Positions 17,440 to 57,584 of a stretch of 64,000 bases of DNA are shown piece after piece (positions within the stretch are counted from its first letter, which is position 1; every line of letters begins with the position of its first letter). The stretch spans positions 26,302-90,301 of the forward strand of contig JAFWKQ010000034.1 in NCBI GenBank assembly GCA_017545665.1, written 5' to 3'. The notes beneath the pieces are model-generated. The model did no database searches and was not told where the DNA came from. It saw only the letters and a list, made by a program, of their open reading frames with translations. Position numbers and translations under genes: made by a program. Origin of the DNA: Atopobiaceae bacterium. GTDB lineage: Bacteria; Actinomycetota; Coriobacteriia; Coriobacteriales; Atopobiaceae.

Positions 17440-17757
17440 CATCGTTTGCGCATAATCGTTCGTCGGTATGTGGTTCGCAACAACGAAAAGGGAGCAGGCA
17501 CTCCGCTGACCCCACTCTCGCTTACTACGCCGCTCACGCACAGGGTGCGCAGCATCCACTGCAAACGTCGAGCTCTCGCAGCTGCTGCGCAAGCGGTTCA
17601 TGTACTGCTCCACAAATCATGGGAAGACCACGCTCAACCACACTCTTCTCGTCCCAGTGTACGGAAGCATTCAACATGCACATTCGTGATCCGTGCTATA
17701 GTTTTCGACACGGTCGGCGATGCTCATGATCGCTAAGCTCTCGCAGCTGCTACTGAG

Positions 17758-17814
17758 CGGTAGGGTGTCGTGGTACCGCAAATCCGATACGAGCGGTACC
17801 ACGACACCCTACCG
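17758..17814. repeat. Perfect 22-bp inverted repeat (hairpin, 13-nt loop)
   Basis: CGGTAGGGTGTCGTGGTACCGC (17758-17779) and GCGGTACCACGACACCCTACCG (17793-17814). There is no U-tract on either side. A 26-nt direct repeat AGCTCTCGCAGCTGCT…GCGGT (17571 and 17735) abuts it. Confidence 0.85.
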
Positions 17815-18063
17815 GTCAGTTAGCAAGCAATCTAACATTGTAATTTGGCAGAATAGAAATGTATCATTGAGCTAGTGTAGCTCAGTCGATATTTGTCTAG
17901 TTAGTATCTTTTGCGAGCCTCTGGCTCATCATTCGTTGACAGTTTGTTAGATTGTCGAATGATTTGTACCCTGTTTTGGTACTGCAATTCTAATTGGTTT
18001 GGGTTCCGTCGTTGGAAGCAGCCACAAAGATAAATACAGCTATGCAGCTACCAACACAACGAA

Positions 18064-19761
18064 ATGGAGACTACGGTGCCAAAAAAACTCACCATTACGC
18101 AAGAGGCGGTTCAAGACTATATCAGCGGCGAAAAGGACAGATACGGCACGGTGCTAACCGACAGTGAAGTGTTCGAGCGCATCGCCTCACAGCAAGTGTT
18201 GAAACAATACGCAATAGACGATGACGAGACGGAAAGGGGTATAGTTGGAGGGGGCAACGATGGTGGGTATGACGGAATCTTCGTTTTTTCGAATGAGGTA
18301 TTAGTGTCTGGGGAGGATACTAATTCGCTGGAGATTCAAAACCGTTCAGCAATCGATATCTATTTCATCCAAGCAAAAAACTCCTACGGTTTTTCCGAAT
18401 CGATAGTGCAGAACTGGAAAACTTCATTTCCAAACCTTATCGAGAATCCGAGAGGTGATGCCCAAAGATATAACACCGACGTAATCGAAGCTTTCACGCT
18501 CATCAGGAGCATACTAAAAAAGACTGTTGTATCACATCTTTGCGTAACATTAAACTTTGTAGCTGTGTCACTTGCAGAAGAGACGCACATCAATCTTGAG
18601 AAGCAAGCTGAAGAGCTTACCAGTATCGTCTATAACATAATACCAAGCCAAAACGCAAAGGTTACCACTGCATTCATTAATGTGCGCAAACTATATGAGC
18701 TTATTGAGCAGGCTCCCGATGAGACTAGATCGATTCGTGCCACAAAAGAGCCTTTATGTCCGGATGAGTCAAGTGCGATTCTTGTAGTCGAATTGGGAGA
18801 ATACTATAAATTCATTACAGACGATAACGGTTTGTTGATTAAAGACCTCTTTGAATCAAATATTAGAGACTACCAAGGCAACATCGAAGTGAACAAAGCA
18901 ATAAGGGCAACACTTGAAAAACAAAATAATATTGATTTCTGGTGGTTAAACAATGGCATCACGATTGTTGCAGAAACAGTTACTCGAGATATGGGTAGCA
19001 CTATAACAATGAAGAACCCACGAATAGTGAACGGATTACAGACTTCCAATGAAATTCGACGCTACTGTCACAATAACACCGAAGTCAACGAACATAGAAA
19101 GGTACTTGTAAAGTGCATTGCAACATCGAGCCAAGAGAATCGCTCGGCGATTATTGAAGCAACAAATAAACAAAGCACAATTCCACCTGCTTTTCTCCGA
19201 TCTCTCGATACCATTCAGTTGCAAATTGAACGTTACTTTACAAATCACAATCTTCACTACGACAGGAGAAAAAGCTCGTGTAGGAATGCGGGTATTCCTG
19301 CAAAAGAGATCATTTCTTTGCCTTTCCTTGGTCAATGCTTGATTTCGATACTCTTACAACAACCTGACTATGCTCGCGCTCGACCAGCTCAAGTTTTAAA
19401 TGATGATAAGAAGTATCAGACAATATTTAATGAATCAATATCTCTGGAGGCTTATTTACGTGTCGGATCTCTTGCATTGTATACACGTCAGTGGCTGAAA
19501 GAGTCGTCATACTCCCGAGGCGCACAAAATGACATAATGTTTTATGTATTACTCTTTATTTGCATCAAACAAGTTGGTCATGAAAACATCAGTCCTTCAG
19601 ATCTTCTATGTCTTGAAATCCCATCAGAATGGGCAATCGAAGATTATGCGTGTCAAACACATAACGCTTACGTACGACTGGGCGGTAATCCCACAGTCGC
19701 AAAGGGGCGTGGTCTTGTTCGCGAAGTAGTACAACTGGCTATGGCGGAAAAGGCTAACTAG
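18064..19761 (+). CDS. AIPR-family abortive-infection protein
   Basis: 565 aa with the N-terminal motif GGGNDGGYDGIFVF…IYFIQAKNS and the central RIVNGLQTSNEI (the xNGxQT motif of AIPR). The gene is markedly AT-richer than its neighbours. Confidence 0.75.
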   Translation: METTVPKKLTITQEAVQDYISGEKDRYGTVLTDSEVFERIASQQVLKQYAIDDDETERGIVGGGNDGGYDGIFVFSNEVLVSGEDTNSLEIQNRSAIDIYFIQAKNSYGFSESIVQNWKTSFPNLIENPRGDAQRYNTDVIEAFTLIRSILKKTVVSHLCVTLNFVAVSLAEETHINLEKQAEELTSIVYNIIPSQNAKVTTAFINVRKLYELIEQAPDETRSIRATKEPLCPDESSAILVVELGEYYKFITDDNGLLIKDLFESNIRDYQGNIEVNKAIRATLEKQNNIDFWWLNNGITIVAETVTRDMGSTITMKNPRIVNGLQTSNEIRRYCHNNTEVNEHRKVLVKCIATSSQENRSAIIEATNKQSTIPPAFLRSLDTIQLQIERYFTNHNLHYDRRKSSCRNAGIPAKEIISLPFLGQCLISILLQQPDYARARPAQVLNDDKKYQTIFNESISLEAYLRVGSLALYTRQWLKESSYSRGAQNDIMFYVLLFICIKQVGHENISPSDLLCLEIPSEWAIEDYACQTHNAYVRLGGNPTVAKGRGLVREVVQLAMAEKAN

Positions 19762-19889
19762 CAATACCGAACTTTTCCTAAAAGCCCTTCCCACAACTCT
19801 TACTCTACATTAGAAGGCGGTGTTCAGGAGGGACCATTTCAAGGTCGAGGACTATCGCCCAAGTCGAATGCACACGTCAAGGAGGGCCC

Positions 19890-20927
19890 ATGACAGATCA
19901 AAGGAACAGGCACTCCCCCGACCCAACCCTCGCCTACTACGCCGCACACGCTCAAGAGTTCGCCGACTCCACCGTGGGCGTCGAGTTCTCGCATACGCAG
20001 CACAAGTTCGAAGAGCTCCTCCCGCCCGGCGCGCGCATTCTGGACTTCGGCTGCGGGTCTGGTCGCGACACCAAGCACTTCCTCGAGGCCGGCTACGACG
20101 TCGTTGCCATAGACGGGTCCCCCGAGCTCTGCCAATACGCCCATGAGCTCACGGGGATCCCCCATCCGAAACGAGCGGTTCCAGGACCTTGTCGACGTCG
20201 AGGCATACGACGGAATCTGGGCGTGCTCGTCCATACTCCACCTTCCCAAGGCGGAGCTCCCCGGCGTCCTTGCGCTCATGGTTCGGGCGCTCAGGCTCCA
20301 CGGCATTATCTACACCTCGTTCAAGCTCGGTGGCTTCGATGGCATGCGCAACGGCCGCTACTTCTCCGACTTCACGGAGCCGGAGCTGCGCGACCTCATC
20401 GGCTCGATCCCGCAGCTCGCCTGATTATTCCGACGTAAACCATCAGTCCTTCCAAGATTTGCCGGCACCCGTTCCAAACTGAGACGGCACCCGTTCCAGA
20501 GCGTCGGCACCTGTTTCGCCCCAGCCTAATCTCAGCCATCATGCCGGTTGGTGCAGAATCGCATAACGTGTGCCAGCTCCATATCCGGAAGCTAGAGAAA
20601 CTAAATCTCTCGCGTGGATAGACACATTTCGACCGTCCCAGATTCGCTGTGAGGGCGTCCGATGGCCAATCTCTATGCCAATGGGTGGTCGATGCTGGCT
20701 TCGATGATTCCCCGCTTGTCTCAGTAGTGAATAGTGGGTGCCGATGCTCTGGAAAGGGTGCCGGTGCCCGTAATGGGTGCCGGCACCCGGAACACCTGAC
20801 CGATGATCTGGAACAGCCGCCGTTATGGCTTGGAATAATCACCGTCGAGGAGCTCTGGACGTCTGGCGACGTGCGCCCCGGAAGGGAGAGCGAGCAGTGG
20901 TTGAACGTGCTCCTGCGCAAGGCATAG
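19890..20927 (+). pseudogene. Class I SAM-dependent methyltransferase, inactivated by a +1 frameshift in a C5 run and by insertion of MITE-like element B
   Basis: Frame 1 reads …ARILDFGCGSGRDTKHFLEAGYDVVAIDGSPELCQYAHELTGIP. After the C-run at 20159-20163, frame 2 continues IRNERFQDLVDVEAYDGIWACSSILHL…DFTEPELRDLIGSIPQLA. A TGA supplied by the first 3 nt of the element (20422) ends it. The conserved family C-terminus (T)VEELWTSGDVRPGRESEQWLNVLLRKA* resumes at 20841-20927. Confidence 0.75.
20422..20841. mobile_element. MITE-like non-autonomous element B (420 bp), same family as element A
   Basis: The tips are TGATTATTCCG … TGGAATAATCA. The left-end cores lie at 20428, 20450, 20472, 20494 and 20514 (22-bp phasing) within CGGCACCCGTTCCA units. 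Inverted units lie at 20750, 20770, 20788, 20809 and 20831. The element interrupts the methyltransferase reading frame. Confidence 0.7.
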
Positions 20928-25500: not shown

Positions 25501-25583
25501 CCGATGGGTCTAAATCCAAAAAAGAATGCCTAAAGGCTCGGCAGCATCAAGGCGTTCGACCCCTGCAGTAGGCCAAATTCTCC

Positions 25584-25614
25584 TTGACTGCGATCCTGTG
25601 GATGTGGGTATAAT
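25584..25614 (+). promoter_or_regulatory. Candidate sigma70-type promoter for a short RNA antisense to the peptide gene 25689..25808
   Basis: TTGACT (25584-25589), a 19-nt spacer, then TATAAT (25609-25614) inside the 11-mer TGGGTATAATG, which recurs at 26209-26219. Confidence 0.4.
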
Positions 25615-25670
25615 GGGGTCGACGGCGCAGCCCGCGTTGCTGCTCGGGCGACGCCTCGAGCTATCTTAAG

Positions 25671-25699
25671 AAGGCCCTAGGTTGCAGCCTAGCGGCCTT
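25671..25699. terminator. Bidirectional hairpin shared by the peptide mRNA and the putative antisense RNA
   Basis: AAGGCCCTAGG-TTGCAG-CCTAG(C)GGCCTT. It overlaps the TAG stop of the peptide ORF and is followed on the plus strand by the T/C-rich CCTCCTTCTCTTT. Confidence 0.45.
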
Positions 25700-25808
25700 C
25701 CTCCTTCTCTTTGCTGTCGTCCGCGATCACGGTATGGTCCCTCTTGAGCAATGCAGCCAGCGTGGCAATAGCCGTCACCAGCTTGATTATCTCCGTCAAC
25801 AGTTCCAT
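25689..25808 (-). CDS. 39-aa hydrophobic peptide, candidate type I toxin
   Basis: MELLTEIIKLVTAIATLAALLKRDHTVIADDSKEKEEGR. The SD GGGAGG lies 8-9 nt upstream. Just 5-prime of it, the mRNA carries CCUCCC, which can pair with the SD (GCCUCCC-GGGA-GGGAGGU). Confidence 0.5.
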   Translation of the reverse strand: MELLTEIIKLVTAIATLAALLKRDHTVIADDSKEKEEGR

Positions 25809-26184
25809 GGGCTTTCACCTCCCTCCCGGGAGGCGTCGCCCGATCGCGGGGCTTACGCGCCGCCGACCTTGTCGAAAACTATAGCACTTCGCGTCCTGAA
25901 TTTGTTGATAATTCACCTCGCTTTTCTTCATCAATGATGATGTAAGCCGTCGCAACTGCACCGCCACGGCCTTTACCGCATGCAATAGTTTTGACCACAA
26001 TGAGGACCCGGTGGCCGCCGGGTCTTCCCATGTTTATCCAACGTCATCCATTCACTCGCGCTTATGTTTCTTCCACCGTCCGCAGGTCCCCAGGGCGAGC
26101 TTGGCGAGCAGTCGGATCACGGTCACGGTCGACTGGTTTCCCAACCTCTCAGCACTCTCAACCGATCAACGATTGCCAATTCAG

Positions 26185-26343
26185 TTACGTTTGACGTCCT
26201 CGTCCATATGGGTATAATGAAGGCAAACGGTGATGCCCGTCGGGCTGGCTGGGCCGCGCCGTTCTAGCTTTTCGGGTCGGGGTCCTGTGGGTGGGACATA
26301 CGAAGGCTGTTGCGAGCTTGAGGAACTCCCTCAGCGTATCCAT
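26185..26343 (-). CDS. 52-aa paralogue of the hydrophobic peptide (divergent basic tail)
   Basis: MDTLREFLKLATAFVCPTHRTPTRKART… aligns at its N-terminus with MELLTEIIKLVTAIA. The SD GAGGAGG lies 9 nt upstream of ATG 26343. Confidence 0.35.
   Translation of the reverse strand: MDTLREFLKLATAFVCPTHRTPTRKARTARPSQPDGHHRLPSLYPYGRGRQT
26191..26218 (+). promoter_or_regulatory. Second candidate antisense promoter
   Basis: TTGACG (26191-26196), a 16-nt spacer, then TATAAT (26213-26218). It points into the 3-prime part of the peptide ORF 26185..26343. Confidence 0.35.
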
Positions 26344-26466
26344 GGGGCACCACCTCCTCTTCGAGGCACGGCCCAGCGGAACGGGACTTACACACCGCTT
26401 ACCGGAATCCCAGTGTATCACGTCTTATCTATTTTGGAGTGTCTATTTGCTTACATAAGGCCCCCG

Positions 26467-26607
26467 CTATCTTGCGCCTCGTCCCCAGAGGCCCTCGTCC
26501 TCTTTCGCGCGGTCATCGTCCGCGATCGTGGGATGGTCCCTCTTGAGCAATGCCGCCAGCGTGGCGAGAGCCGTCACCAGCTTGATTATCTCCGTCAACA
26601 GTTCCTT
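26467..26607 (-). pseudogene. Third copy of the peptide gene with its start codon destroyed
   Basis: (K)ELLTEIIKLVTALATLAALLKRDHPTIADD… keeps the same upstream CCTCCCGGGAGG/SD block, but ATG is replaced by TAAG (CCCTAAGGAACTG versus CCCATGGAACTG). Confidence 0.45.
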
Positions 26608-26723
26608 AGGGCTTTCGCCTCCCTCCCGGGAGGCGTCGCCCGATCGCAGGGCGATCGCGGGGCTTACGCGCTTTTTACTCGTATAACTGTGTCACTTTGA
26701 GACACCTCATATCAAACACTCTG

Positions 26724-32974: not shown

Positions 32975-33139
32975 CTAAACGCCCTGCATGACCGTGCGCT
33001 TTTGACCAAGGACACGTACCTGGTTCTTCCACCATCCTCGTACGGCCAGGGCGAGCCTGGCGAGCAGTCGGATCACGGTCGTCGAGTCTGCGGCCAGTGC
33101 CGCGACCGACAGTGCAACAAGAATTTCGTGTATAGGCAT
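32975..33139 (-). CDS. 54-aa hydrophobic/basic peptide (second small-peptide family)
   Basis: AGGAGG lies 6 nt before ATG 33139. The product is MPIHEILVALSVAALAADSTTVIRLLARLALAVRGWWKNQ…. A 22-nt identical block (GGCGAGCAGTCGGATCACGGTC) and a homologous peptide tail (…TVTVIRLLAKLALGTCGRWKKHKRE*) recur at about 26046-26135. Confidence 0.35.
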   Translation of the reverse strand: MPIHEILVALSVAALAADSTTVIRLLARLALAVRGWWKNQVRVLGQKRTVMQGV

Positions 33140-33649
33140 GTTCGCCCTCCTTTCGAAGAACGCCGCCCGCGCGCGGACTCTGCAGGCACGTGCTTGGCAT
33201 TCTATCGATGCGGCGGGCGTCGGGAGCGCGCCCTTTTCGCACCACTGGCGCAAGACAACGGTGTAGTTAAGCCAGGTATAGGTGCGCCACTTCGAGACAC
33301 CCCGCCCCAGCGAAAACCTTTCGGACGGCCGCATGCCAACTGGTAACTACGCACAACGCATTTCATTGTGCATAGTTCCTCGAAGAAGCCCAGTTGGCTA
33401 ATCGCCGCGAACGTCAAATTACGCACCGTACTGCGTTGTGCGTAATTGGGCGTCCCGCACCGGCCGAGCAGTCACGTGCCCTTCTCACCCCTTCTATGCC
33501 TTTGCCCAAAGCGCATCGTTTGACTTCAGCATTACGGGATCTTCTCGCCACAGGGCAGCAGTCCACAACGGATGCCCCATCTCGGGCGCCCCCGCAACGC
33601 GCTCGGACCCAGCCCGCGCCCAGCGTCCCATTCCCCGAGCGACTTCATT

Positions 33650-51387: not shown

Positions 51388-54300
51388 CTAGATTCCGTTT
51401 TCCATGCAGAACAGTCTGAACTTGTCGTTAAACGTACCCACGAACTCCAATATCTCGGCACTCTCGGGGAAGGTGTTGGCAATCTGCGCCCAAGCGTTAA
51501 TACGGTTTTCGTCGATATTGCCCTTCAACGTGGTTCCCGTTTCGATTATCTGGGGCGAGTCCGCATTGTACAGATCCTCAACCTTCTTCTTTATGGCAGC
51601 CTTGTCGGCGGGATCGAGCTCCTTGTAGTTGAGGAAAGCCTGGTAGATGGGAATCCTGCCATAGGGGAACTCCGGGCCGAACTTCGAGAGCGTGATGTCG
51701 GTAGTAATGCCATGCTCAATGCGATGGTAGATTACCAAACGTCCTCCATAGGAAATGACGCCTGTGAAGAGTGCCTCGCAGAAGTCGGCCGCGTCCTGGT
51801 TTCCAACGCCCACGGCTTGGATGCGATCCTCGAGCGCCTTCTTCGCGGCGGCTGCTGCGTTGCGCACCTCGTCAATCTGATCGAGTATCTGGCTAACCAG
51901 AATCTGATAGGCCGGGGCATATACGAAGTGGTCCACGAACATGCGACGCTTGACCTCTGGATCGGTTGGTCCGTCGTCCATGAAGCTCGAGCCGCTGTAC
52001 TCCATTTGCAGATTGGACGCGGCATCAAGCGCAGACAGCGCCTGTTGGGCGTCGGCAATTTGATTGGGACGCTGTAGCTGCCCAACAAGCTGCTCGCACG
52101 TTGCGACGGCATTCCTCAACGCTTCGAGCGACTCGTCCGTCGGCTTGAGGATCCTGCGCGTGGAGTCAAACAATCCGGCGGCTTCCGCCCGATCAAAGAG
52201 CTCGCGGGCTGCCATTACGTTTTCCCGCACTTGGTGCGGAACCATGTCAAGACGCACCAAGCTCTGCGGAGTCAGCGGCGGAAGCTTGCGCCAATCGTCA
52301 AACACCATGCCCGGTATTGGCTTGCCCTCATAGAAATGTGTGCCGGGAACGGGCGTCACCTCAAAGTAGGAGTTCTCGTACTCATTGCAGTTGTTGTAGG
52401 CCGAAAGAGGCAACGCCGCAGAGCACGACATTACGTAGATGCGATCCGTAAGCGCACTCACCTTGATCTTGTAGTCCTCATCCACCGCATTGAGCCTCTC
52501 GGCTGCCTTGCGGACGGGCTCAGACGTATCTGGGACAGAGAGGAACGCCATGGTAGAGGCCTGATCCTCGCTCCACACGGTGCCGTTGAAGTGGAACAGG
52601 GGACGAGCGCGTTCCTTGAGCTTTACCATCCAGTCGCTGTACACGCGATTGGTAAGCTCCTCGTTGTTGTCCGTGTCATACTTGTCCTTGAGGAACGAGG
52701 TGATGGAGCGGCTGGCAAACTCGCCAAACGCCGTCTCGACGAAGAACTTCGTCACGGCCCTGCAGATTCTGTTCTCGTCCTCTTGCAGCCACTCCGCATC
52801 GTCTGCGAGAAGTGCACCCATAAGCGCACTGAACATGCCGGGCACGCTCACGTTCGCAATCTGAGTGTCCATGGAGGCCTTGAGCTCGTCGATGCTCATG
52901 AGCGGCATTGCGAACGCATCCTCAACCGTCGCCTGTCGCTCCGACGCAAGTACGTCCGCGTTCTCCTTAAACGTATCGATGAGGTTCGACGTCACGCGTG
53001 CAAGGCGTGCGTAGTACCGAGCGTCCACATCCTCGATCTGCGACTTAAGAACACGCAGGGTCTTGTCCATCATGGCATAGCAATCCAAGGCGAGCAGGTG
53101 GATCTCCCAGGCATTGAACTCTTTCTTGTAGTCCTCGAACCGCTTCCGGTCGTTATCCATAAACCCGCGCTTTATGCGGCTGTGGAAGGTGTTCTTCGCG
53201 TTTTCGTAGTTCTGGCGGAAGACGTCGTCGTTGTAGTTCTCCGTATCCCAGCTGCGCTGGTTCTCGGTTATGAGTCCGTCTACGATATTAAGCATGTTGT
53301 GGCTCATGGCCGCAGAGAGCATACCGTGCGCAAAGATGGGCCCAAGCTCGACGTTTCGAATGATATCCACCATCGCATTGCGAATGCGGTTTATGAGCGA
53401 GTTCTCGTTGTCCTCACTCTGCATGCTGAGGGCGTTCTTCTCGGCAATGCCCTTCTTGTTTGCGGCGAGTCCGGCATAGTGCCTCACCATGCCTGCGCTG
53501 CCATCGCTGAGTGCGAGCTTGAAGTCGTCGCCCCAGTCTTCGAACATGAAGTCAAACCCCTGCTGCATCTCGGTCGTAAGACGGTTGTACAGCTGAGATA
53601 TGTCTCCTTCCCTGCTGTTGCCAAGGGAGGCCATGGCAAACACCTCGATGTCCCTCTTCGTGGGAAGGTTTTTGCCAACACCGCTAAACTTCCCAAACAG
53701 TTCCGAGGCAAGATAGGTGTTAACCTCGCGCAAGGGCAGACTCGCGCAGGCGGCTCCGATGACGCAGTAATTGAGATTGACACCGTAGCGCTTGGTGCCA
53801 TCGCCCATGTTTACGCAGTTCGTGAAATTGGAGAGCTGCGACTCCATGGTAAAGCCCTCGCTCTTGGTGAGGAAGTCCATAACGTACTCCGCCGTAACGT
53901 TCATGGCGTATTCGTACGCCTTGGGCACGACGTTGTTGTTCGTATCGGTGGCGCACACCAGGTGGCAAAGGTCGACGGGCATCGTATCCCACTCGATCTG
54001 GGTGCCCTGGTAGTTCTGGACGAACGCACCGCCGTTCTCCTTAAGCTGCATGCAGTAGTCGAGCTCCTGCATGGCAGCATAGCCGTTGCGGGGGATGTAT
54101 GCGCGAACCTTACCGTTTGAGTACGGGATGCGAGAGAGGTTTACGTCAGGTAAGAAAAAGTAGCCAAAAATGGTTACGTTCCCTACCTTCTGCGCAATGT
54201 GGCGGACTATGTAGCACACATCCAGGAAGGTGCCCGAACCCGTGCCACCGCTCAGGCCACTGAAGATGTGCACGTAAACCGTGGGGTTGGTGAGCCCGCT

Positions 54301-54825
54301 CTTGGCAGCATTGATCTCCTGCTCGATCCTGTTTGCAAACCGGTTGGACTTTGTCATGAGCATGTAGCGACCAACCTGGCGAATGCCGCCAGCGCCAGCC
54401 ACGGTGAGGTCGCCCGCCTTGATGTCCTCATAGCGCAGCCAGTTGAGCTCCCTGAGGTCGGCCAGGGCGAGCTTGTTGGAAAGGTCCCTCTTAACGTGAC
54501 CGTTGGCAATGGAGAAGTACTCGGTGTCGCTCAGCGCGAGGAGCGAGTCGGCACGCCCCTCCTCTTCGGATCCGGAGATGCCACGGCTCTTCTGGTCGGT
54601 GTCTACGCCAAGAAAGCGGATGTGGTCGTATGTGGGAACAATGGCATCCGGGTCGTCGGGCTTCAGGCGAGAGTGAACCTGCGTCTTAATGGTTCGAAGA
54701 CAATCGACGCCCGTACCGCCCAAACCGATGAGCAGATTGGCCGCATTGGGCTCCTGATCGGCCTGCTGCTGCAAGGAGACTATTCCTCCACCCGCGCTCA
54801 GCAAAAGCTTTGAGTAAACTGCCAT
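51388..54825 (-). CDS. Giant tubulin/FtsZ-superfamily protein (FtsZl-1 / Pfam 'Tubulin like' type)
   Basis: 1145 aa. The N-terminal GTPase domain has LLIGLGGTGVD (T1-like), GAGGIRQVGR and the tubulin signature SGLSGGTGSGTFLD. About 800 aa of helical extension follows. GAGGAAGG lies upstream of ATG 54825. Confidence 0.8.
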   Translation of the reverse strand: MAVYSKLLLSAGGGIVSLQQQADQEPNAANLLIGLGGTGVDCLRTIKTQVHSRLKPDDPDAIVPTYDHIRFLGVDTDQKSRGISGSEEEGRADSLLALSDTEYFSIANGHVKRDLSNKLALADLRELNWLRYEDIKAGDLTVAGAGGIRQVGRYMLMTKSNRFANRIEQEINAAKSGLTNPTVYVHIFSGLSGGTGSGTFLDVCYIVRHIAQKVGNVTIFGYFFLPDVNLSRIPYSNGKVRAYIPRNGYAAMQELDYCMQLKENGGAFVQNYQGTQIEWDTMPVDLCHLVCATDTNNNVVPKAYEYAMNVTAEYVMDFLTKSEGFTMESQLSNFTNCVNMGDGTKRYGVNLNYCVIGAACASLPLREVNTYLASELFGKFSGVGKNLPTKRDIEVFAMASLGNSREGDISQLYNRLTTEMQQGFDFMFEDWGDDFKLALSDGSAGMVRHYAGLAANKKGIAEKNALSMQSEDNENSLINRIRNAMVDIIRNVELGPIFAHGMLSAAMSHNMLNIVDGLITENQRSWDTENYNDDVFRQNYENAKNTFHSRIKRGFMDNDRKRFEDYKKEFNAWEIHLLALDCYAMMDKTLRVLKSQIEDVDARYYARLARVTSNLIDTFKENADVLASERQATVEDAFAMPLMSIDELKASMDTQIANVSVPGMFSALMGALLADDAEWLQEDENRICRAVTKFFVETAFGEFASRSITSFLKDKYDTDNNEELTNRVYSDWMVKLKERARPLFHFNGTVWSEDQASTMAFLSVPDTSEPVRKAAERLNAVDEDYKIKVSALTDRIYVMSCSAALPLSAYNNCNEYENSYFEVTPVPGTHFYEGKPIPGMVFDDWRKLPPLTPQSLVRLDMVPHQVRENVMAARELFDRAEAAGLFDSTRRILKPTDESLEALRNAVATCEQLVGQLQRPNQIADAQQALSALDAASNLQMEYSGSSFMDDGPTDPEVKRRMFVDHFVYAPAYQILVSQILDQIDEVRNAAAAAKKALEDRIQAVGVGNQDAADFCEALFTGVISYGGRLVIYHRIEHGITTDITLSKFGPEFPYGRIPIYQAFLNYKELDPADKAAIKKKVEDLYNADSPQIIETGTTLKGNIDENRINAWAQIANTFPESAEILEFVGTFNDKFRLFCMENGI

Positions 54826-54909
54826 TTTTTAAAATCCTTCCTCGTCTGTTGTCATCGGACGTCAACTACCAATGGAAATGCTTGGGGCTGTCCCTTCTCG
54901 GCCGTCTTC

Positions 54910-57099
54910 CTAGGTTCCAGGCCTACGGGGAGGACGCCTTTGCGCTCCCTGTCCTCCGCCAAAGCCACCACCGGATTTCTGCGATCCCTGCTGATTCATG
55001 CGACCTGCGCCTCCGCCGAAGCCACCGGCAGAACGGTTCTGCGCACCCTGCGTGTGCTTGACGCCACCGCCGAAGCCACCAGCACCGCCAGTGCCCGCCC
55101 GCATGACGCTTTCAAAGCGGATGTTCAAAGTCTTTCCAGGCTCCACGACCACTACCACGGGGGCGCCGCTGTCGATGCGCACCTCTTTGGTCGAATTGCC
55201 GTTGCACGACACGGGGTTGTTCGTGCGGAGGAGTACGTAGCGATCTCCCGTTGCCTGGAAATACGACTTTACGTAGTCGAGGCCCGTGGGGCTGAGCTCA
55301 AAGCGACTGAGCGGGAGACGGCCGCGGCTTCCCTTTACCGTCTTGGGTGCAGAATGGACGCCATCCACCGCGGATTCCACGGTAATCTCGCCGCGGAATG
55401 GCTTCCTCAGAGCGATCCTAAAGAGGATGATGAGCACAATGATGGCAACTATTGCCGCCACGCCTATACCAATGAGCGCCATCAGACCAACGTTGTGGCT
55501 GGTAACGACAATCTCCACGTCGCAATACTTGCCTAGGCTGTCCACCGCACGCACGGTAAAGCCGCCCTTGCTCATGCTGAATTTGGACAAGGTGAGCTTG
55601 TTTCCGTCTACGGTGTAATCGCCATCCATGAACGAGCTGGAGATTACCTTGTACTGCAACGCGTCACCCTGCTCATCGGTTGCGAGCTTTCCAAGATCGA
55701 TCGTAAGGGAGTTGTCCTTGAAGGGCCATATCATAACGGTCTCTTCAACCGGATTGGCAACCGGGACGGGAGCGGTGTTGTTCTTCTCGGCTTCGGTGGA
55801 GGCCTTAGAGCTTACGGCCATGCTGCCGATGATGTCGGAGGTGCGGTCGAGGTGGTTCCCCGTTACGTGAACCCTGAAGTTGTATGCTCCCTCGGGAAGC
55901 TTATGCGCCACCTCGAAGTGATCGCCCTCTAGCTTCATGGGCACGGACTCAACCGGGGCGTTGAACGAGTCCAGAACCTCCAGAGCCGCCTCATAGCCCA
56001 CGTATTGGTCCGTCTTCGCCCTGCCGGCCTTCCCCGCCGTAAGGAACGCCCTCACCGTAAGGGGATCATTGGGGTTGATGGGACCTTCCGCGGGCTGCAA
56101 TTCGCTCTCCACGCCCAAGTCGCTGTTGAACACCATGTTGATCTTCACGGCATCGCCTGGCACGCCTTCGGTTACGAGCTTCCACGTACCTGGCACAACG
56201 TCTGCTATCTTAAGGAGCGTGAACGTATTTGACTCAACGGCCTCGGGCGTCGACGCGCTCCCGTCCGGCCGAGTCACCGTAAACGACTTTGCCTTGCCAT
56301 AGATAACGATGTTTATCTCTTCGACGCCGATGCCCGGTACGTCAAAGGTTGTCTCGAGCTTGCCGTCGGCGGAAAACTTCCCATCGCCAATGGACACGGT
56401 GGAGGTCCCGTATATGAGATTGTAGAAGGTGTTGAATACGTCCTGCAGATCTTCAGCCTTTTTTACCTCGGCAAACTCGCCGCCCGTGGCACCAGATATC
56501 TGTTGCATCTCCGAAATATCCGCGGTATTGTCGGCATTCAGGCACACGCTATATATTTTGATCTTATTGTCACGCGCCGCCTGCACGCTTTCTGCCTTCT
56601 TGTCCAAAGAGGCTTTTAGATCGTCCGCATTGGGCAGGTCCGTGTTACCGTCGCTCAGAAGCAGGATTACGGATGGCAGGTTTTTGTCTCCGTCCTTTTT
56701 GATCATGTTTACGGCAGTGTCGAGCCCCGCGCCAATGTTTGTGTCACCGCGGGCCTCCACGGAGGCAAGCTTGTCCACGACTGCCCTCTTGTCGGCTTGG
56801 CTCTTTACGGGCGCGAGGTCCTGCTGCGCCTCCACGGCAGTCGTAAACACGACTCCACCAAGTTCGTTACCGCTATTTGCCAATAAGTTCGTAAACTGAT
56901 TTATGGCCTCGAATCTTAGGCCATCAGGATCGGTTGTTTTCATGGAACCACTGGCATCGAGCACCATAACAACGTTAAACCTATTGTTCGCAGGTGCAGA
57001 CCCTCCCTCCGCACGGGCTAGCGCTAGCGGTAGCATCACCAACGAAAGCGTTGCCGCGACCACGGCACATAGGAACTTACGCAACGTTTTTGTTCTCAT
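54910..57099 (-). CDS. Secreted/transmembrane von Willebrand factor A protein with Ig-like spacers, a single TM and a cytoplasmic FHA-like segment plus Gly-rich tail
   Basis: GGAGGAAG lies 5 nt before ATG 57099. The signal peptide is KFLCAVVAATLSLVMLPLALARA. The vWA MIDAS motif is VVMVLDASGSM…GDTNIG…LLLSDGNTD. The TM is LMALIGIGVAAIVAIIVLIILF. The tail is …GGAGGFGGGVKHTQ…GGFGGGAGRMNQQGSQKSGGGFGGGQGAQRRPPRRPGT. Confidence 0.82.
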   Translation of the reverse strand: MRTKTLRKFLCAVVAATLSLVMLPLALARAEGGSAPANNRFNVVMVLDASGSMKTTDPDGLRFEAINQFTNLLANSGNELGGVVFTTAVEAQQDLAPVKSQADKRAVVDKLASVEARGDTNIGAGLDTAVNMIKKDGDKNLPSVILLLSDGNTDLPNADDLKASLDKKAESVQAARDNKIKIYSVCLNADNTADISEMQQISGATGGEFAEVKKAEDLQDVFNTFYNLIYGTSTVSIGDGKFSADGKLETTFDVPGIGVEEINIVIYGKAKSFTVTRPDGSASTPEAVESNTFTLLKIADVVPGTWKLVTEGVPGDAVKINMVFNSDLGVESELQPAEGPINPNDPLTVRAFLTAGKAGRAKTDQYVGYEAALEVLDSFNAPVESVPMKLEGDHFEVAHKLPEGAYNFRVHVTGNHLDRTSDIIGSMAVSSKASTEAEKNNTAPVPVANPVEETVMIWPFKDNSLTIDLGKLATDEQGDALQYKVISSSFMDGDYTVDGNKLTLSKFSMSKGGFTVRAVDSLGKYCDVEIVVTSHNVGLMALIGIGVAAIVAIIVLIILFRIALRKPFRGEITVESAVDGVHSAPKTVKGSRGRLPLSRFELSPTGLDYVKSYFQATGDRYVLLRTNNPVSCNGNSTKEVRIDSGAPVVVVVEPGKTLNIRFESVMRAGTGGAGGFGGGVKHTQGAQNRSAGGFGGGAGRMNQQGSQKSGGGFGGGQGAQRRPPRRPGT

Positions 57100-57584
57100 C
57101 GTTCTTCCTCCATCGCTCCCATGAAGCCTGCCACGGAGGCAGGAATAACGGCAATTTGCGTAGCACGTGAGCTGCAGCGGCAAATATGTGCGTCTTAGCT
57201 GCGTTTATTGCTACTTTTAGGTGTGAGATTCCGTACCTGTTGCAAACCACAAACACGCATTATTGTTTAACGCAAAACCAAAGTAAACTAAAAGTAGGCT
57301 TAAGGGTTGTACAACGTCTGCCAATGACACGCGCTTGCAATAATAGGGTCAAGACTAATATCGTGTATACATAGGATATCATATACTTTACAATATCATT
57401 CTACTATGCATAATACTTATCACATCATGCGAACGCCATTGCGCGCCTCTTCTTGAATTATATTTGAATCGATCCTCACCTTTCGTCCGCAAACACGTTG
57501 TGCAACGAGTACACGTTATTTTTTGCATAGTATACGTATTGATATACCATTTATAGCGGGCAACCAGTAAGGGAAAGGATCAGC

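Follow-up and report, generated by a model that had tools for sequence, protein, structure and literature searches.

Does a row of small hydrophobic-peptide genes in a bacterial defence island encode a toxin-antitoxin (TA) system of type I? The known type I TA families are narrowly distributed, those in the sources cited here coming from Proteobacteria and Firmicutes (PMC5367252, PMC8594479), and a literature search returned no paper linking type I systems to Coriobacteriia. The genes in question lie in a stretch of 64,000 nucleotides from an Atopobiaceae bacterium (assembly GCA_017545665.1, contig JAFWKQ010000034.1, positions 26,302 to 90,301; hereafter the window, whose own numbering is used throughout). 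A first-pass annotation, made from the sequence alone, had described three minus-strand copies of a peptide gene with hairpin-sequestered Shine-Dalgarno (SD) sequences and convergent antisense promoters, and had proposed a type I TA array. That reading survived every test that could be run, except that the array contains only one live module. This module, copy 1, lies within a defence island and is probably the live cassette of a type I TA family, new and previously undescribed, of the Coriobacteriia.

Copy 1 Is an Intact, Self-Contained Cassette

Copy 1 occupies ~330 bp (about 25576-25895), and it was the sole full copy that a profile of the unit found in the window. On the minus strand, it starts with a candidate toxin promoter, the extended -10 element TGcTATAGT, which had been placed ~70 nt upstream of the ATG and which we located at 25878-25886; the predicted transcription start site is at about 25870-25872. 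The 5' untranslated region (UTR) carries a 14-nt element (the L box, UCGGGCGACGCCUC, 25830-25843, minus strand), the final 4 nt of which are the first 4 nt of an anti-SD sequence, and a hairpin (GCCUCCC-GGGA-GGGAGGU, 25817-25834, minus strand) in which the anti-SD pairs with the SD, 9 nt before the ATG. The candidate toxin gene (25689-25808, minus strand) encodes the 39-aa peptide MELLTEIIKLVTAIATLAALLKRDHTVIADDSKEKEEGR. Its TAG stop codon lies inside a GC-rich hairpin (25671-25699), as the first-pass annotation had noted, and this hairpin is a candidate bidirectional terminator. In the mRNA 3' region lies a second element (the D box, GAGGCGUCGCCCGA, 25644-25657, minus strand); the plus strand of the same DNA is a copy of the L box within the antisense RNA. 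The predicted antisense (antitoxin) RNA of ~90 nt (25621-25712, plus strand) has a 5' hairpin, a terminator hairpin, and a C/U-rich tail. Its promoter, TTGACT-19-TATAAT (25584-25614, plus strand), points at the 3' end of the open reading frame (ORF) and was read directly; the 19-nt spacer falls outside the 16-18 range of our promoter scanner. The antisense promoters reported earlier for copies 1 and 2 are both present, and the 11-mer common to them (ATGTGGGTATAATG / ATATGGGTATAATG) constitutes repeat family D5.

The whole unit was found again in 12 distinct homologous loci. In DNA alignments, conservation runs from the toxin -10 to the -35 of the antisense promoter, and the flanks are unrelated: the toxin -10 is kept in 11 close homologs and in locus L029 and is the start of conservation in L012, and the antisense -35 is the end of conservation in all homologs. 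The recurrence in 12 loci, with boundaries at both promoters, indicates that the unit is more than a chance arrangement. Two of the loci, L026 (beside a JetD/Wadjet-like operon) and L029 (beside ilvBN), have ~50% peptide identity and differing genomic contexts, and both retain the L box, the anti-SD/SD hairpin, a 40-aa ORF, the D box, and an antisense promoter (TTGACA-17-GACAAT and TTGACC-17-TACAAA, respectively). The stop-codon hairpin is retained in both with a different sequence, and the toxin -10 is kept in L029 and altered in L026.

A short palindrome (CATCAATGATG, 25929-25939; TCATCATTGGTGATGA in L002-type loci, at about 4865-4885 of L002) is conserved ~45-55 nt upstream of the toxin -10. 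It lies within an ~80-nt upstream extension that is common to most loci but not L012, and it could be an operator.

The Peptide Is Constrained across a Family of ~40 Clusters

A first profile search, of 5.8 billion proteins, returned eleven clusters of 39-41 aa and a remnant of 76 aa, all unnamed and lacking Pfam domains. With an exhaustive HMMER search and another profile search added, the family grew to ~40 clusters of 37-43 aa from rumen and gut metagenomes. The first-pass annotation had proposed looking for the peptide and UTR in related genomes, and the outcome agrees with its proposal: the ORF is conserved in ~40 clusters, and the RNA elements are kept in divergent members. Peptide length and pattern are preserved down to about 40-50% identity. 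The pattern consists of M[ED]LL[IT]E[LI][VI]KL[VA][TA]A, ~8 hydrophobic residues, [RK][RK]xH, a short linker, and an acidic tail ending EGR/EDR, and residues M1, E6, K9, L10, A13, L17, D30, E37, and R39 are invariant or near-invariant. Among ten 39-codon homologs, pN/pS is 0.53 and the variable sites number 8, 8, and 19 at codon positions 1, 2, and 3.

Scans of GTDB genomes for the exact pattern and for the peptide matched only two uncultured Coriobacteriaceae rumen metagenome-assembled genomes (MAGs), and scans of JGI metagenomes and viral contigs with the peptide profile found no relatives. Besides those two MAGs, members have so far turned up only in rumen/gut assemblies from ENA and Logan.

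The peptide is a small (<60 aa), hydrophobic, membrane-type ORF product of the kind expected of a type I toxin. AlphaFold2 (33 sequences) predicted a helix spanning residues 2-25 (pLDDT about 90) followed by a disordered tail, and the polar residues E2, E6, K9, T12, and T16 of the helix fall on one face. The Kyte-Doolittle mean over 19 residues is 2.0-2.3, which we take to be similar to the hydrophobicity of Fst and TisB.

The RNA Hairpins Show Compensatory Changes

Compared with shuffled controls, the copy 1 mRNA has excess structure (z -4.2 to -4.6). The first-pass annotation had asked for the 5' UTR to be folded, and in RNAfold the SD was paired at a probability of ~1 in every transcript model, in agreement with the pairing that it had claimed. 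Across 12 homologs, 97% of cells in the SD hairpin and the outer terminator stem are paired, three pairs have changed on both sides, and none of 500 shuffles reached the covariation score; within the SD hairpin, C-to-U changes preserve G.U pairs. Compensatory A-U to G-C and C-G to U-A changes are found in the stop-codon hairpin of L017, L026, and L029. The antisense RNA folds at -44.1 kcal/mol (z -3.6) into its 5' hairpin and terminator hairpin, and the RNAalifold consensus of the 12 homologs gives both hairpins, with four compensated pairs. A second 5'-3' helix in the minimum free energy (MFE) structure of the mRNA, GGUCGGCGGCGCG:UGCGCCGUCGACC, was rejected, as the alignment shows wobbles and mismatches there and no compensation.

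The Leader and the mRNA 3' Region Carry a Matched Pair of Boxes

The leader box forms an inverted repeat (I1/I2), not a direct one: the L box, directly 5' of the anti-SD, is a 14-nt perfect inverted repeat with 25644-25657. Its complement is found past the stop-codon hairpin in the 3' direction, about 25 nt from where the antisense RNA starts. Given this inverted arrangement, the antisense RNA and the leader bear the same box rather than complementary boxes, and the first ~40 nt of both transcripts are alike (alignment score 50, versus 19 +/- 3.8 for shuffles).

Pairing between the L and D boxes is preserved in 12/12 homologs (99.4% of cells), with G.U substitutions and one U-A to C-G change. 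Each cassette type that we checked has its own perfect or near-perfect box pair, and the sequences differ between types: GCUGGGCCGUGCC with GGCGCGGCCCAGC in the paralogous subfamily A2 (copy 2), CGCGGGCGAUGC with GCAUCGCCCGCG in Collinsella-type loci, and CGGGCGGCG with CGCCGCCCG (read by eye) in family B, a second peptide family of the same islands. This matching between types is a stronger argument for pairing than covariation within the family.

The fold-back conformer in which L pairs with D lies 0-5.7 kcal/mol from the MFE in 12 homologs and is itself the MFE in three of them, and the small energy gap in these models suggests a two-state mRNA. Two results speak against such a switch. The boxes are mostly invariant, so that covariation within the family is not significant (the score was reached by 78/500 shuffles), and in the MFE of copy 1 the SD stays closed whether the 3' region is included or left out. 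The possibility that antisense binding closes an otherwise open SD was rejected, since the SD is closed in the predicted MFE of the window for all transcript models; the case for a switch is thus the energy gap in the 12 homologs together with the conservation of the boxes.

The inverted repeat bears on a different explanation of the locus, that the unit is a mobile or recombinogenic repeat resembling a miniature inverted-repeat transposable element (MITE), with terminal inverted repeats, incidental ORF and promoters, and copies that mark junctions of defence-cassette exchange. The ends of the cassette are indeed imperfect inverted repeats of ~40 nt with the alignment score given above, full and partial copies are many and their contexts varied, fragments flank a low-GC AIPR insert, and metagenome contigs break ~220 nt past the ORF. 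However, no target-site duplications are visible at the boundaries, which coincide with promoter elements, the peptide is constrained across deep divergence, and the hairpins change by compensation; RNA pairing explains the inverted repeat, and recombination at repeated cassettes is compatible with TA function. A MITE would have terminal repeats, target-site duplications, and no selected ORF, and in the cassette the repeat is internal, no duplications are seen, and the ORF is constrained. We consider this explanation very unlikely.

The Locus Is Transcribed

Metatranscriptome contigs from seven runs in five studies span 25616-25852, without strand information. One rumen metatranscriptome yielded a contig of 235 nt that matches 25616-25849 with a single mismatch, and it is the only contig at >=97% identity over 15-34 kb of the island. 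Six more runs from four more studies gave contigs with mostly the same limits, belonging to this variant or to the L002 variant. The contigs begin on the left at 25616-25624 and stop on the right at 25845-25852, apart from two shorter ones that end within the span, and the depth over the flanking genes is 0. Contigs that end inside conserved DNA, together with zero depth in the flanks, argue for RNA and against contaminating DNA. Of the antisense RNA gene that a type I system needs, a conserved promoter, 5' hairpin, and terminator are seen in a transcribed locus; the contigs, being strandless, may or may not include the plus-strand RNA.

One contig runs into Illumina adapter at 25843, and in several runs the ends cluster at 25843-25852, immediately 5' of the L box; counted from the predicted start of the toxin transcript, this is about 20-28 nt in. 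Either RNA processing or the 3' end of a plus-strand RNA could account for these positions.

The Antisense RNA Resembles the Orphan Collinsella-1 Motif

Collinsella-1 (Rfam RF01700) is an orphan small RNA (sRNA) found in Collinsella and in the human gut (Weinberg et al. 2010, PMC2864571) for which no function had been proposed. The antisense -10, 5' hairpin, and terminator of the window (25608-25697) align to positions 95-196 of its model with 13.9 bits (E 0.28), and the antisense RNA of L021 scores 17.8 bits; the antisense side of family B scores 26.4 bits in L001 and 20.2 bits in L002 over the full model. The gathering score is 35 bits, and neither family A (the family of copy 1) nor family B reaches it. 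The P3 hairpin and terminator stem-loop of Collinsella-1 are present in the consensus fold of the 12 homologs. The bacterial family is the same, and so is the plus-strand plan: a TAAAAT/TATAAT -10, a 5' hairpin with the 3' arm CGGGCGAYGC, and a terminator hairpin with a GCUGCAAC-type loop.

We examined the published seed loci of the motif with their flanks (PMC2864571, supplementary file 100). Two of the six have a convergent ORF on the opposite strand that encodes a hydrophobic peptide of 50-51 aa (MSKVFEALAALAAVGTFIVTFLDSYEIKFRIRRRARTVRDEGRRGRRSKK), with a TAGAAT promoter, an SD, a shared terminator, and a leader box that repeats the P3 hairpin arm of the sRNA exactly; in another, the sRNA is kept and the ORF is lost. 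The associated peptide is unrelated in sequence to that of the window and has a basic tail, in contrast to the acidic tail of the window peptide. The Collinsella-1 model places its stems P1 and P2 upstream of what looks like a -10 (GGGUAAAAU), and the true RNA may thus comprise P3 and the terminator only. A sequence profile of the cassette gave nothing significant against the published loci (0.4 bits), and for this reason we claim a shared design and a weak covariance-model match, not homology or membership. Within those limits, the cassette suggests a function for the motif.

This resemblance also raises the possibility that what functions is a Collinsella-1-like sRNA from the plus strand, with other targets or a protein partner, and that the ORF is secondary or tolerated. 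The weak model matches (13.9-17.8 bits in family A, 26.4 bits in family B) would fit such an sRNA, as would the published Collinsella-1 loci without an intact opposite ORF, the sRNA-only copies in L001, and the RNA contigs without strand. Against it, the peptide keeps its length and pattern at 40-50% identity, with the DNA diverged, third codon positions change in excess, and the SD, the start codon, and a dedicated promoter are conserved; decaying TA loci, moreover, leave sRNA-only copies. We regard this reading as unlikely.

Decay of the Other Copies Follows the Pattern Expected of a Toxin-Antitoxin Pair

The three minus-strand copies of the first-pass annotation were found at the coordinates that it gave, with their ORFs, but the descriptions of copies 2 and 3 needed revision. 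Copy 2 (26185-26424, minus strand) belongs to A2. Its 52-aa ORF (26185-26343), which had been said to have a divergent tail, is a 39-aa gene with an 83-bp internal deletion (at 26299/26300) that also takes out one terminator arm; the intact A2 gene in L001 encodes the 39-aa peptide MDTLTEFLKLATALVLLAVAVLKLRSTSEADGPDDQEDE, and an RNA contig exists that contains the 83 nt absent from copy 2. Copy 2 retains its boxes (L2, 26365-26377; D2, 26248-26260) and the antisense promoter TTGACG-16-TATAAT (26191-26218; 11/12 matches). Copy 3 (26464-26691, minus strand) is a remnant made up of the leader and the 5' two-thirds of the ORF (26467-26607), corresponding to unit-profile positions 36-205 only. Its start codon is destroyed (ATG to AAG), as reported, and it also has a 1-nt insertion and lacks the toxin promoter, the terminator, and the antisense gene. 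The partial copies found by the unit profile were 26487-26671 (copy 3), 26303-26404 and 26201-26258 (copy 2), and two fragments (17688-17727 and 19816-19857). Judged by these lesions, copies 2 and 3 are dead.

A syntenic locus in a MAG (L001) is ~89-91% identical to the window, but its array differs: it has two antisense-only remnants, one intact A2 cassette, one intact A1 cassette, and an ortholog of copy 3. All toxin remnants without an antisense gene are disabled, having lost the promoter and the start codon. The persistence of antisense-only remnants and the disabling of toxin remnants that lack the antisense gene form the pattern expected of a TA pair.

This pattern bears on the strongest competing explanation, in which the peptide is a small membrane or regulatory protein that is not toxic, a cis-antisense RNA and a structured leader adjust its expression, and neither addiction nor killing is involved. 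What we have observed is anatomy, its conservation, and transcription of the locus, and we infer the toxicity; the helix is amphipathic, the N terminus charged, and the tail acidic, and many conserved small membrane proteins are not toxins. On the other side, layered repression is typical of toxins, the cassettes are multi-copy and patchy and turn over fast between ~90% identical strains, toxin-only remnants are always disabled and antisense-only remnants persist, and the cassettes occur only in accessory or defence regions. We consider a non-toxic role unlikely, though the likeliest of the alternatives.

Several other observations weigh against a type I TA system. The residues E2, E6, and K9 make the helix amphipathic rather than a plain transmembrane segment. 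Scans of Pfam and NCBIfam, with six peptides each, gave nothing above noise, toxin models included, even at E-values of 1-10, in line with the first-pass annotation, which had not recognised the peptide as a known toxin family, and Rfam at its gathering score gave no antitoxin or other match in the whole window. As the contigs have no strand, they could represent one RNA of ~235 nt, from either strand, or else combine the mRNA with a short antisense RNA. On the right they stop at 25845-25852, ~20 nt before the predicted toxin start site, a shortfall that may reflect processing, a fall-off in coverage, or a plus-strand 3' end, and on the left they begin (25616-25618) 2-4 nt past the TATAAT, closer than a normal start site. 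The 19-nt spacer of the copy 1 antisense promoter and the U-poor tails of the terminators are further points of this kind.

Comparison with Described Type I Systems

The layout of the cassette is closer to the 3'-overlapping TxpA/RatA and BsrG/SR4 systems of Bacillus subtilis than to Fst/par. In Gram-positive type I families, the antisense RNA is on the 3' side, and TxpA/RatA and BsrG/SR4 share with the cassette a small membrane peptide and a convergent antisense RNA that extends across the toxin mRNA's 3' end into the end of the ORF (PMC8594479). The SD is likewise sequestered in the mRNA, and the SR4 antitoxin binds the 3' end of bsrG mRNA and lengthens the SD-sequestering helix (PMC3834814). 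The match is in layout alone: Pfam, NCBIfam, and Rfam gave no peptide or RNA similarity to either system, and the B. subtilis hosts belong to another phylum. To our knowledge, a perfect 14-nt pair of leader and 3'-end boxes is not a described feature of TxpA/RatA or BsrG/SR4.

The first-pass annotation had likened the layout to Fst/par of Enterococcus pAD1. The likeness holds for the convergent genes with a shared hairpin terminator (the hairpin 25671-25699 lies between the convergent promoters), for the hydrophobic helix with an acidic tail, and for the structured, translation-blocking leader. It fails for the 5' direct repeats, which are absent, and there was no match to the Pfam model Fst_toxin even at E-values of 1-10. 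The direct repeats of Fst make the 5' regions of its RNAs complementary, whereas the repeats of the cassette are inverted and its 5' regions are alike, so that the complementarity of the cassette RNAs comes from physical overlap and not from repeats.

Like hok/sok, the cassette is predicted to have a full-length toxin mRNA whose 5' and 3' regions pair over a long range and which has alternative conformers. It has no Hok homology, and in hok/sok the target of Sok is the 5' leader, and hok depends on the mok reading frame and on trimming at the 3' end. The type I TA systems of Clostridioides difficile, which lie beside CRISPR arrays and within prophages (PMC5961336), are similar in being multi-copy modules in defence or mobile regions of a gut anaerobe; their peptides and RNAs appear unrelated to those of the cassette.

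Island Context and a Second Peptide Family

The defence island occupies 8-33 kb of the window. Its genes encode a DpnII endonuclease with a D12 methylase, a PLD-ResIII-DUF3427 helicase-nuclease, AIPR, a ResIII helicase, DUF3800, a truncated HpaII endonuclease, a UvrD/DUF4145 helicase, and an AAA_11/AAA_12-DUF2726 helicase. An ORF beside the ResIII helicase (19890-20438) is a candidate methyltransferase, named by analogy with L002. The HpaII ORF matches profile positions 151-359 only, with no cytosine methylase noted alongside, and it may be a remnant. Elsewhere, homologous cassettes adjoin NERD, ResIII and methyltransferase, AAA_14/DUF4143, JetD, and AAA_15/AAA_21 genes.

Two fragments of the cassette, a solo toxin promoter with the first ~20 nt of the leader (17688-17727, plus strand) and a piece from the middle of the ORF (19816-19857, plus strand), bracket a low-GC (44%) segment that carries the AIPR gene (18064-19761). 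A plus-strand cassette seems to have had its interior exchanged for this segment. At about 17762-17820 there is a near-perfect inverted repeat with arms of ~23 bp. The contigs of L026-L030, from independent metagenomes, all end ~220-230 nt past the peptide gene, at the outer border of the cassette; this suggests that assembly graphs branch there because the flanks differ between co-occurring strains.

Family B, the second small hydrophobic peptide family of these islands, has the sequence MPIHEILVALSVAALAADSTTVIRLLARLALAxRGRWKKHKRE, with a basic tail. A remnant in the window (26002-26144, minus strand) retains the C-terminal ...VIRLLAKLALGTCGRWKKHKRE and a terminator hairpin (26002-26027), and a 5' part lies at 32990-33215 (minus strand), with a TAGAAT promoter and a leader (CGCGCGGGCGGCG) that resembles the Collinsella-type leader. 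Further family B sites are found at 6590-6887 of L001 and 4300-4609 of L002, and related intact copies elsewhere are well covered in metatranscriptomes. At 51388-57183 (minus strand), the window also encodes a 1145-aa Tubulin_2-like protein beside a 757-aa von Willebrand A protein, an accessory pair unrelated to the cassette.

Discussion

In the model of copy 1 that we favor, the extended -10 promoter would direct a minus-strand mRNA of ~210-255 nt, in which the ribosome-binding site would be locked in a 7-8 bp hairpin, so that the 39-aa peptide would normally not be made. If made, the peptide, a single hydrophobic helix with one polar face and an acidic tail, would insert in the membrane and arrest or kill the cell. 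The convergent promoter would direct a plus-strand RNA of ~90 nt, fully complementary to the 3' end of the mRNA, and pairing there could lead to cleavage of the duplex, hold the mRNA closed, or both. In an mRNA that reads through the hairpin, the 14-nt leader box could pair with the mRNA's own 3' segment, which is the one that the antisense RNA covers. As the L box and the antisense RNA share this one site, the antitoxin and the leader would compete for it, and a two-state switch is possible. How the antisense RNA acts, on which strand and between which ends the RNAs run, and whether box pairing plays a part are matters that we infer. Cassettes that lie between defence genes probably stabilise the island or contribute to it.

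More tentatively, the A1 cassettes, their A2 paralogs, family B, and the Collinsella-1 loci may together make up a Coriobacteriia superfamily of type I TA-like cassettes built to one unusual design, in which an arm of the antitoxin 5' hairpin copies the toxin-leader box beside the anti-SD and the mRNA 3' end pairs with either the leader or the antitoxin, giving a bistable switch at the ribosome-binding site. The cassettes might then act as addiction or anchor points for the swapping of defence genes. We put this forward as a speculative extension, well short of the claim for copy 1.

If validated, the cassette would extend the type I class to gut and rumen anaerobes of the Actinomycetota, would give the orphan Collinsella-1 motif a testable function 16 years after its description, and would add a compact cassette to the inventory of defence-island components. 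Its matched leader and 3'-end boxes, type-specific in sequence, would make it a clean system for the study of antisense-driven, long-range mRNA switching.

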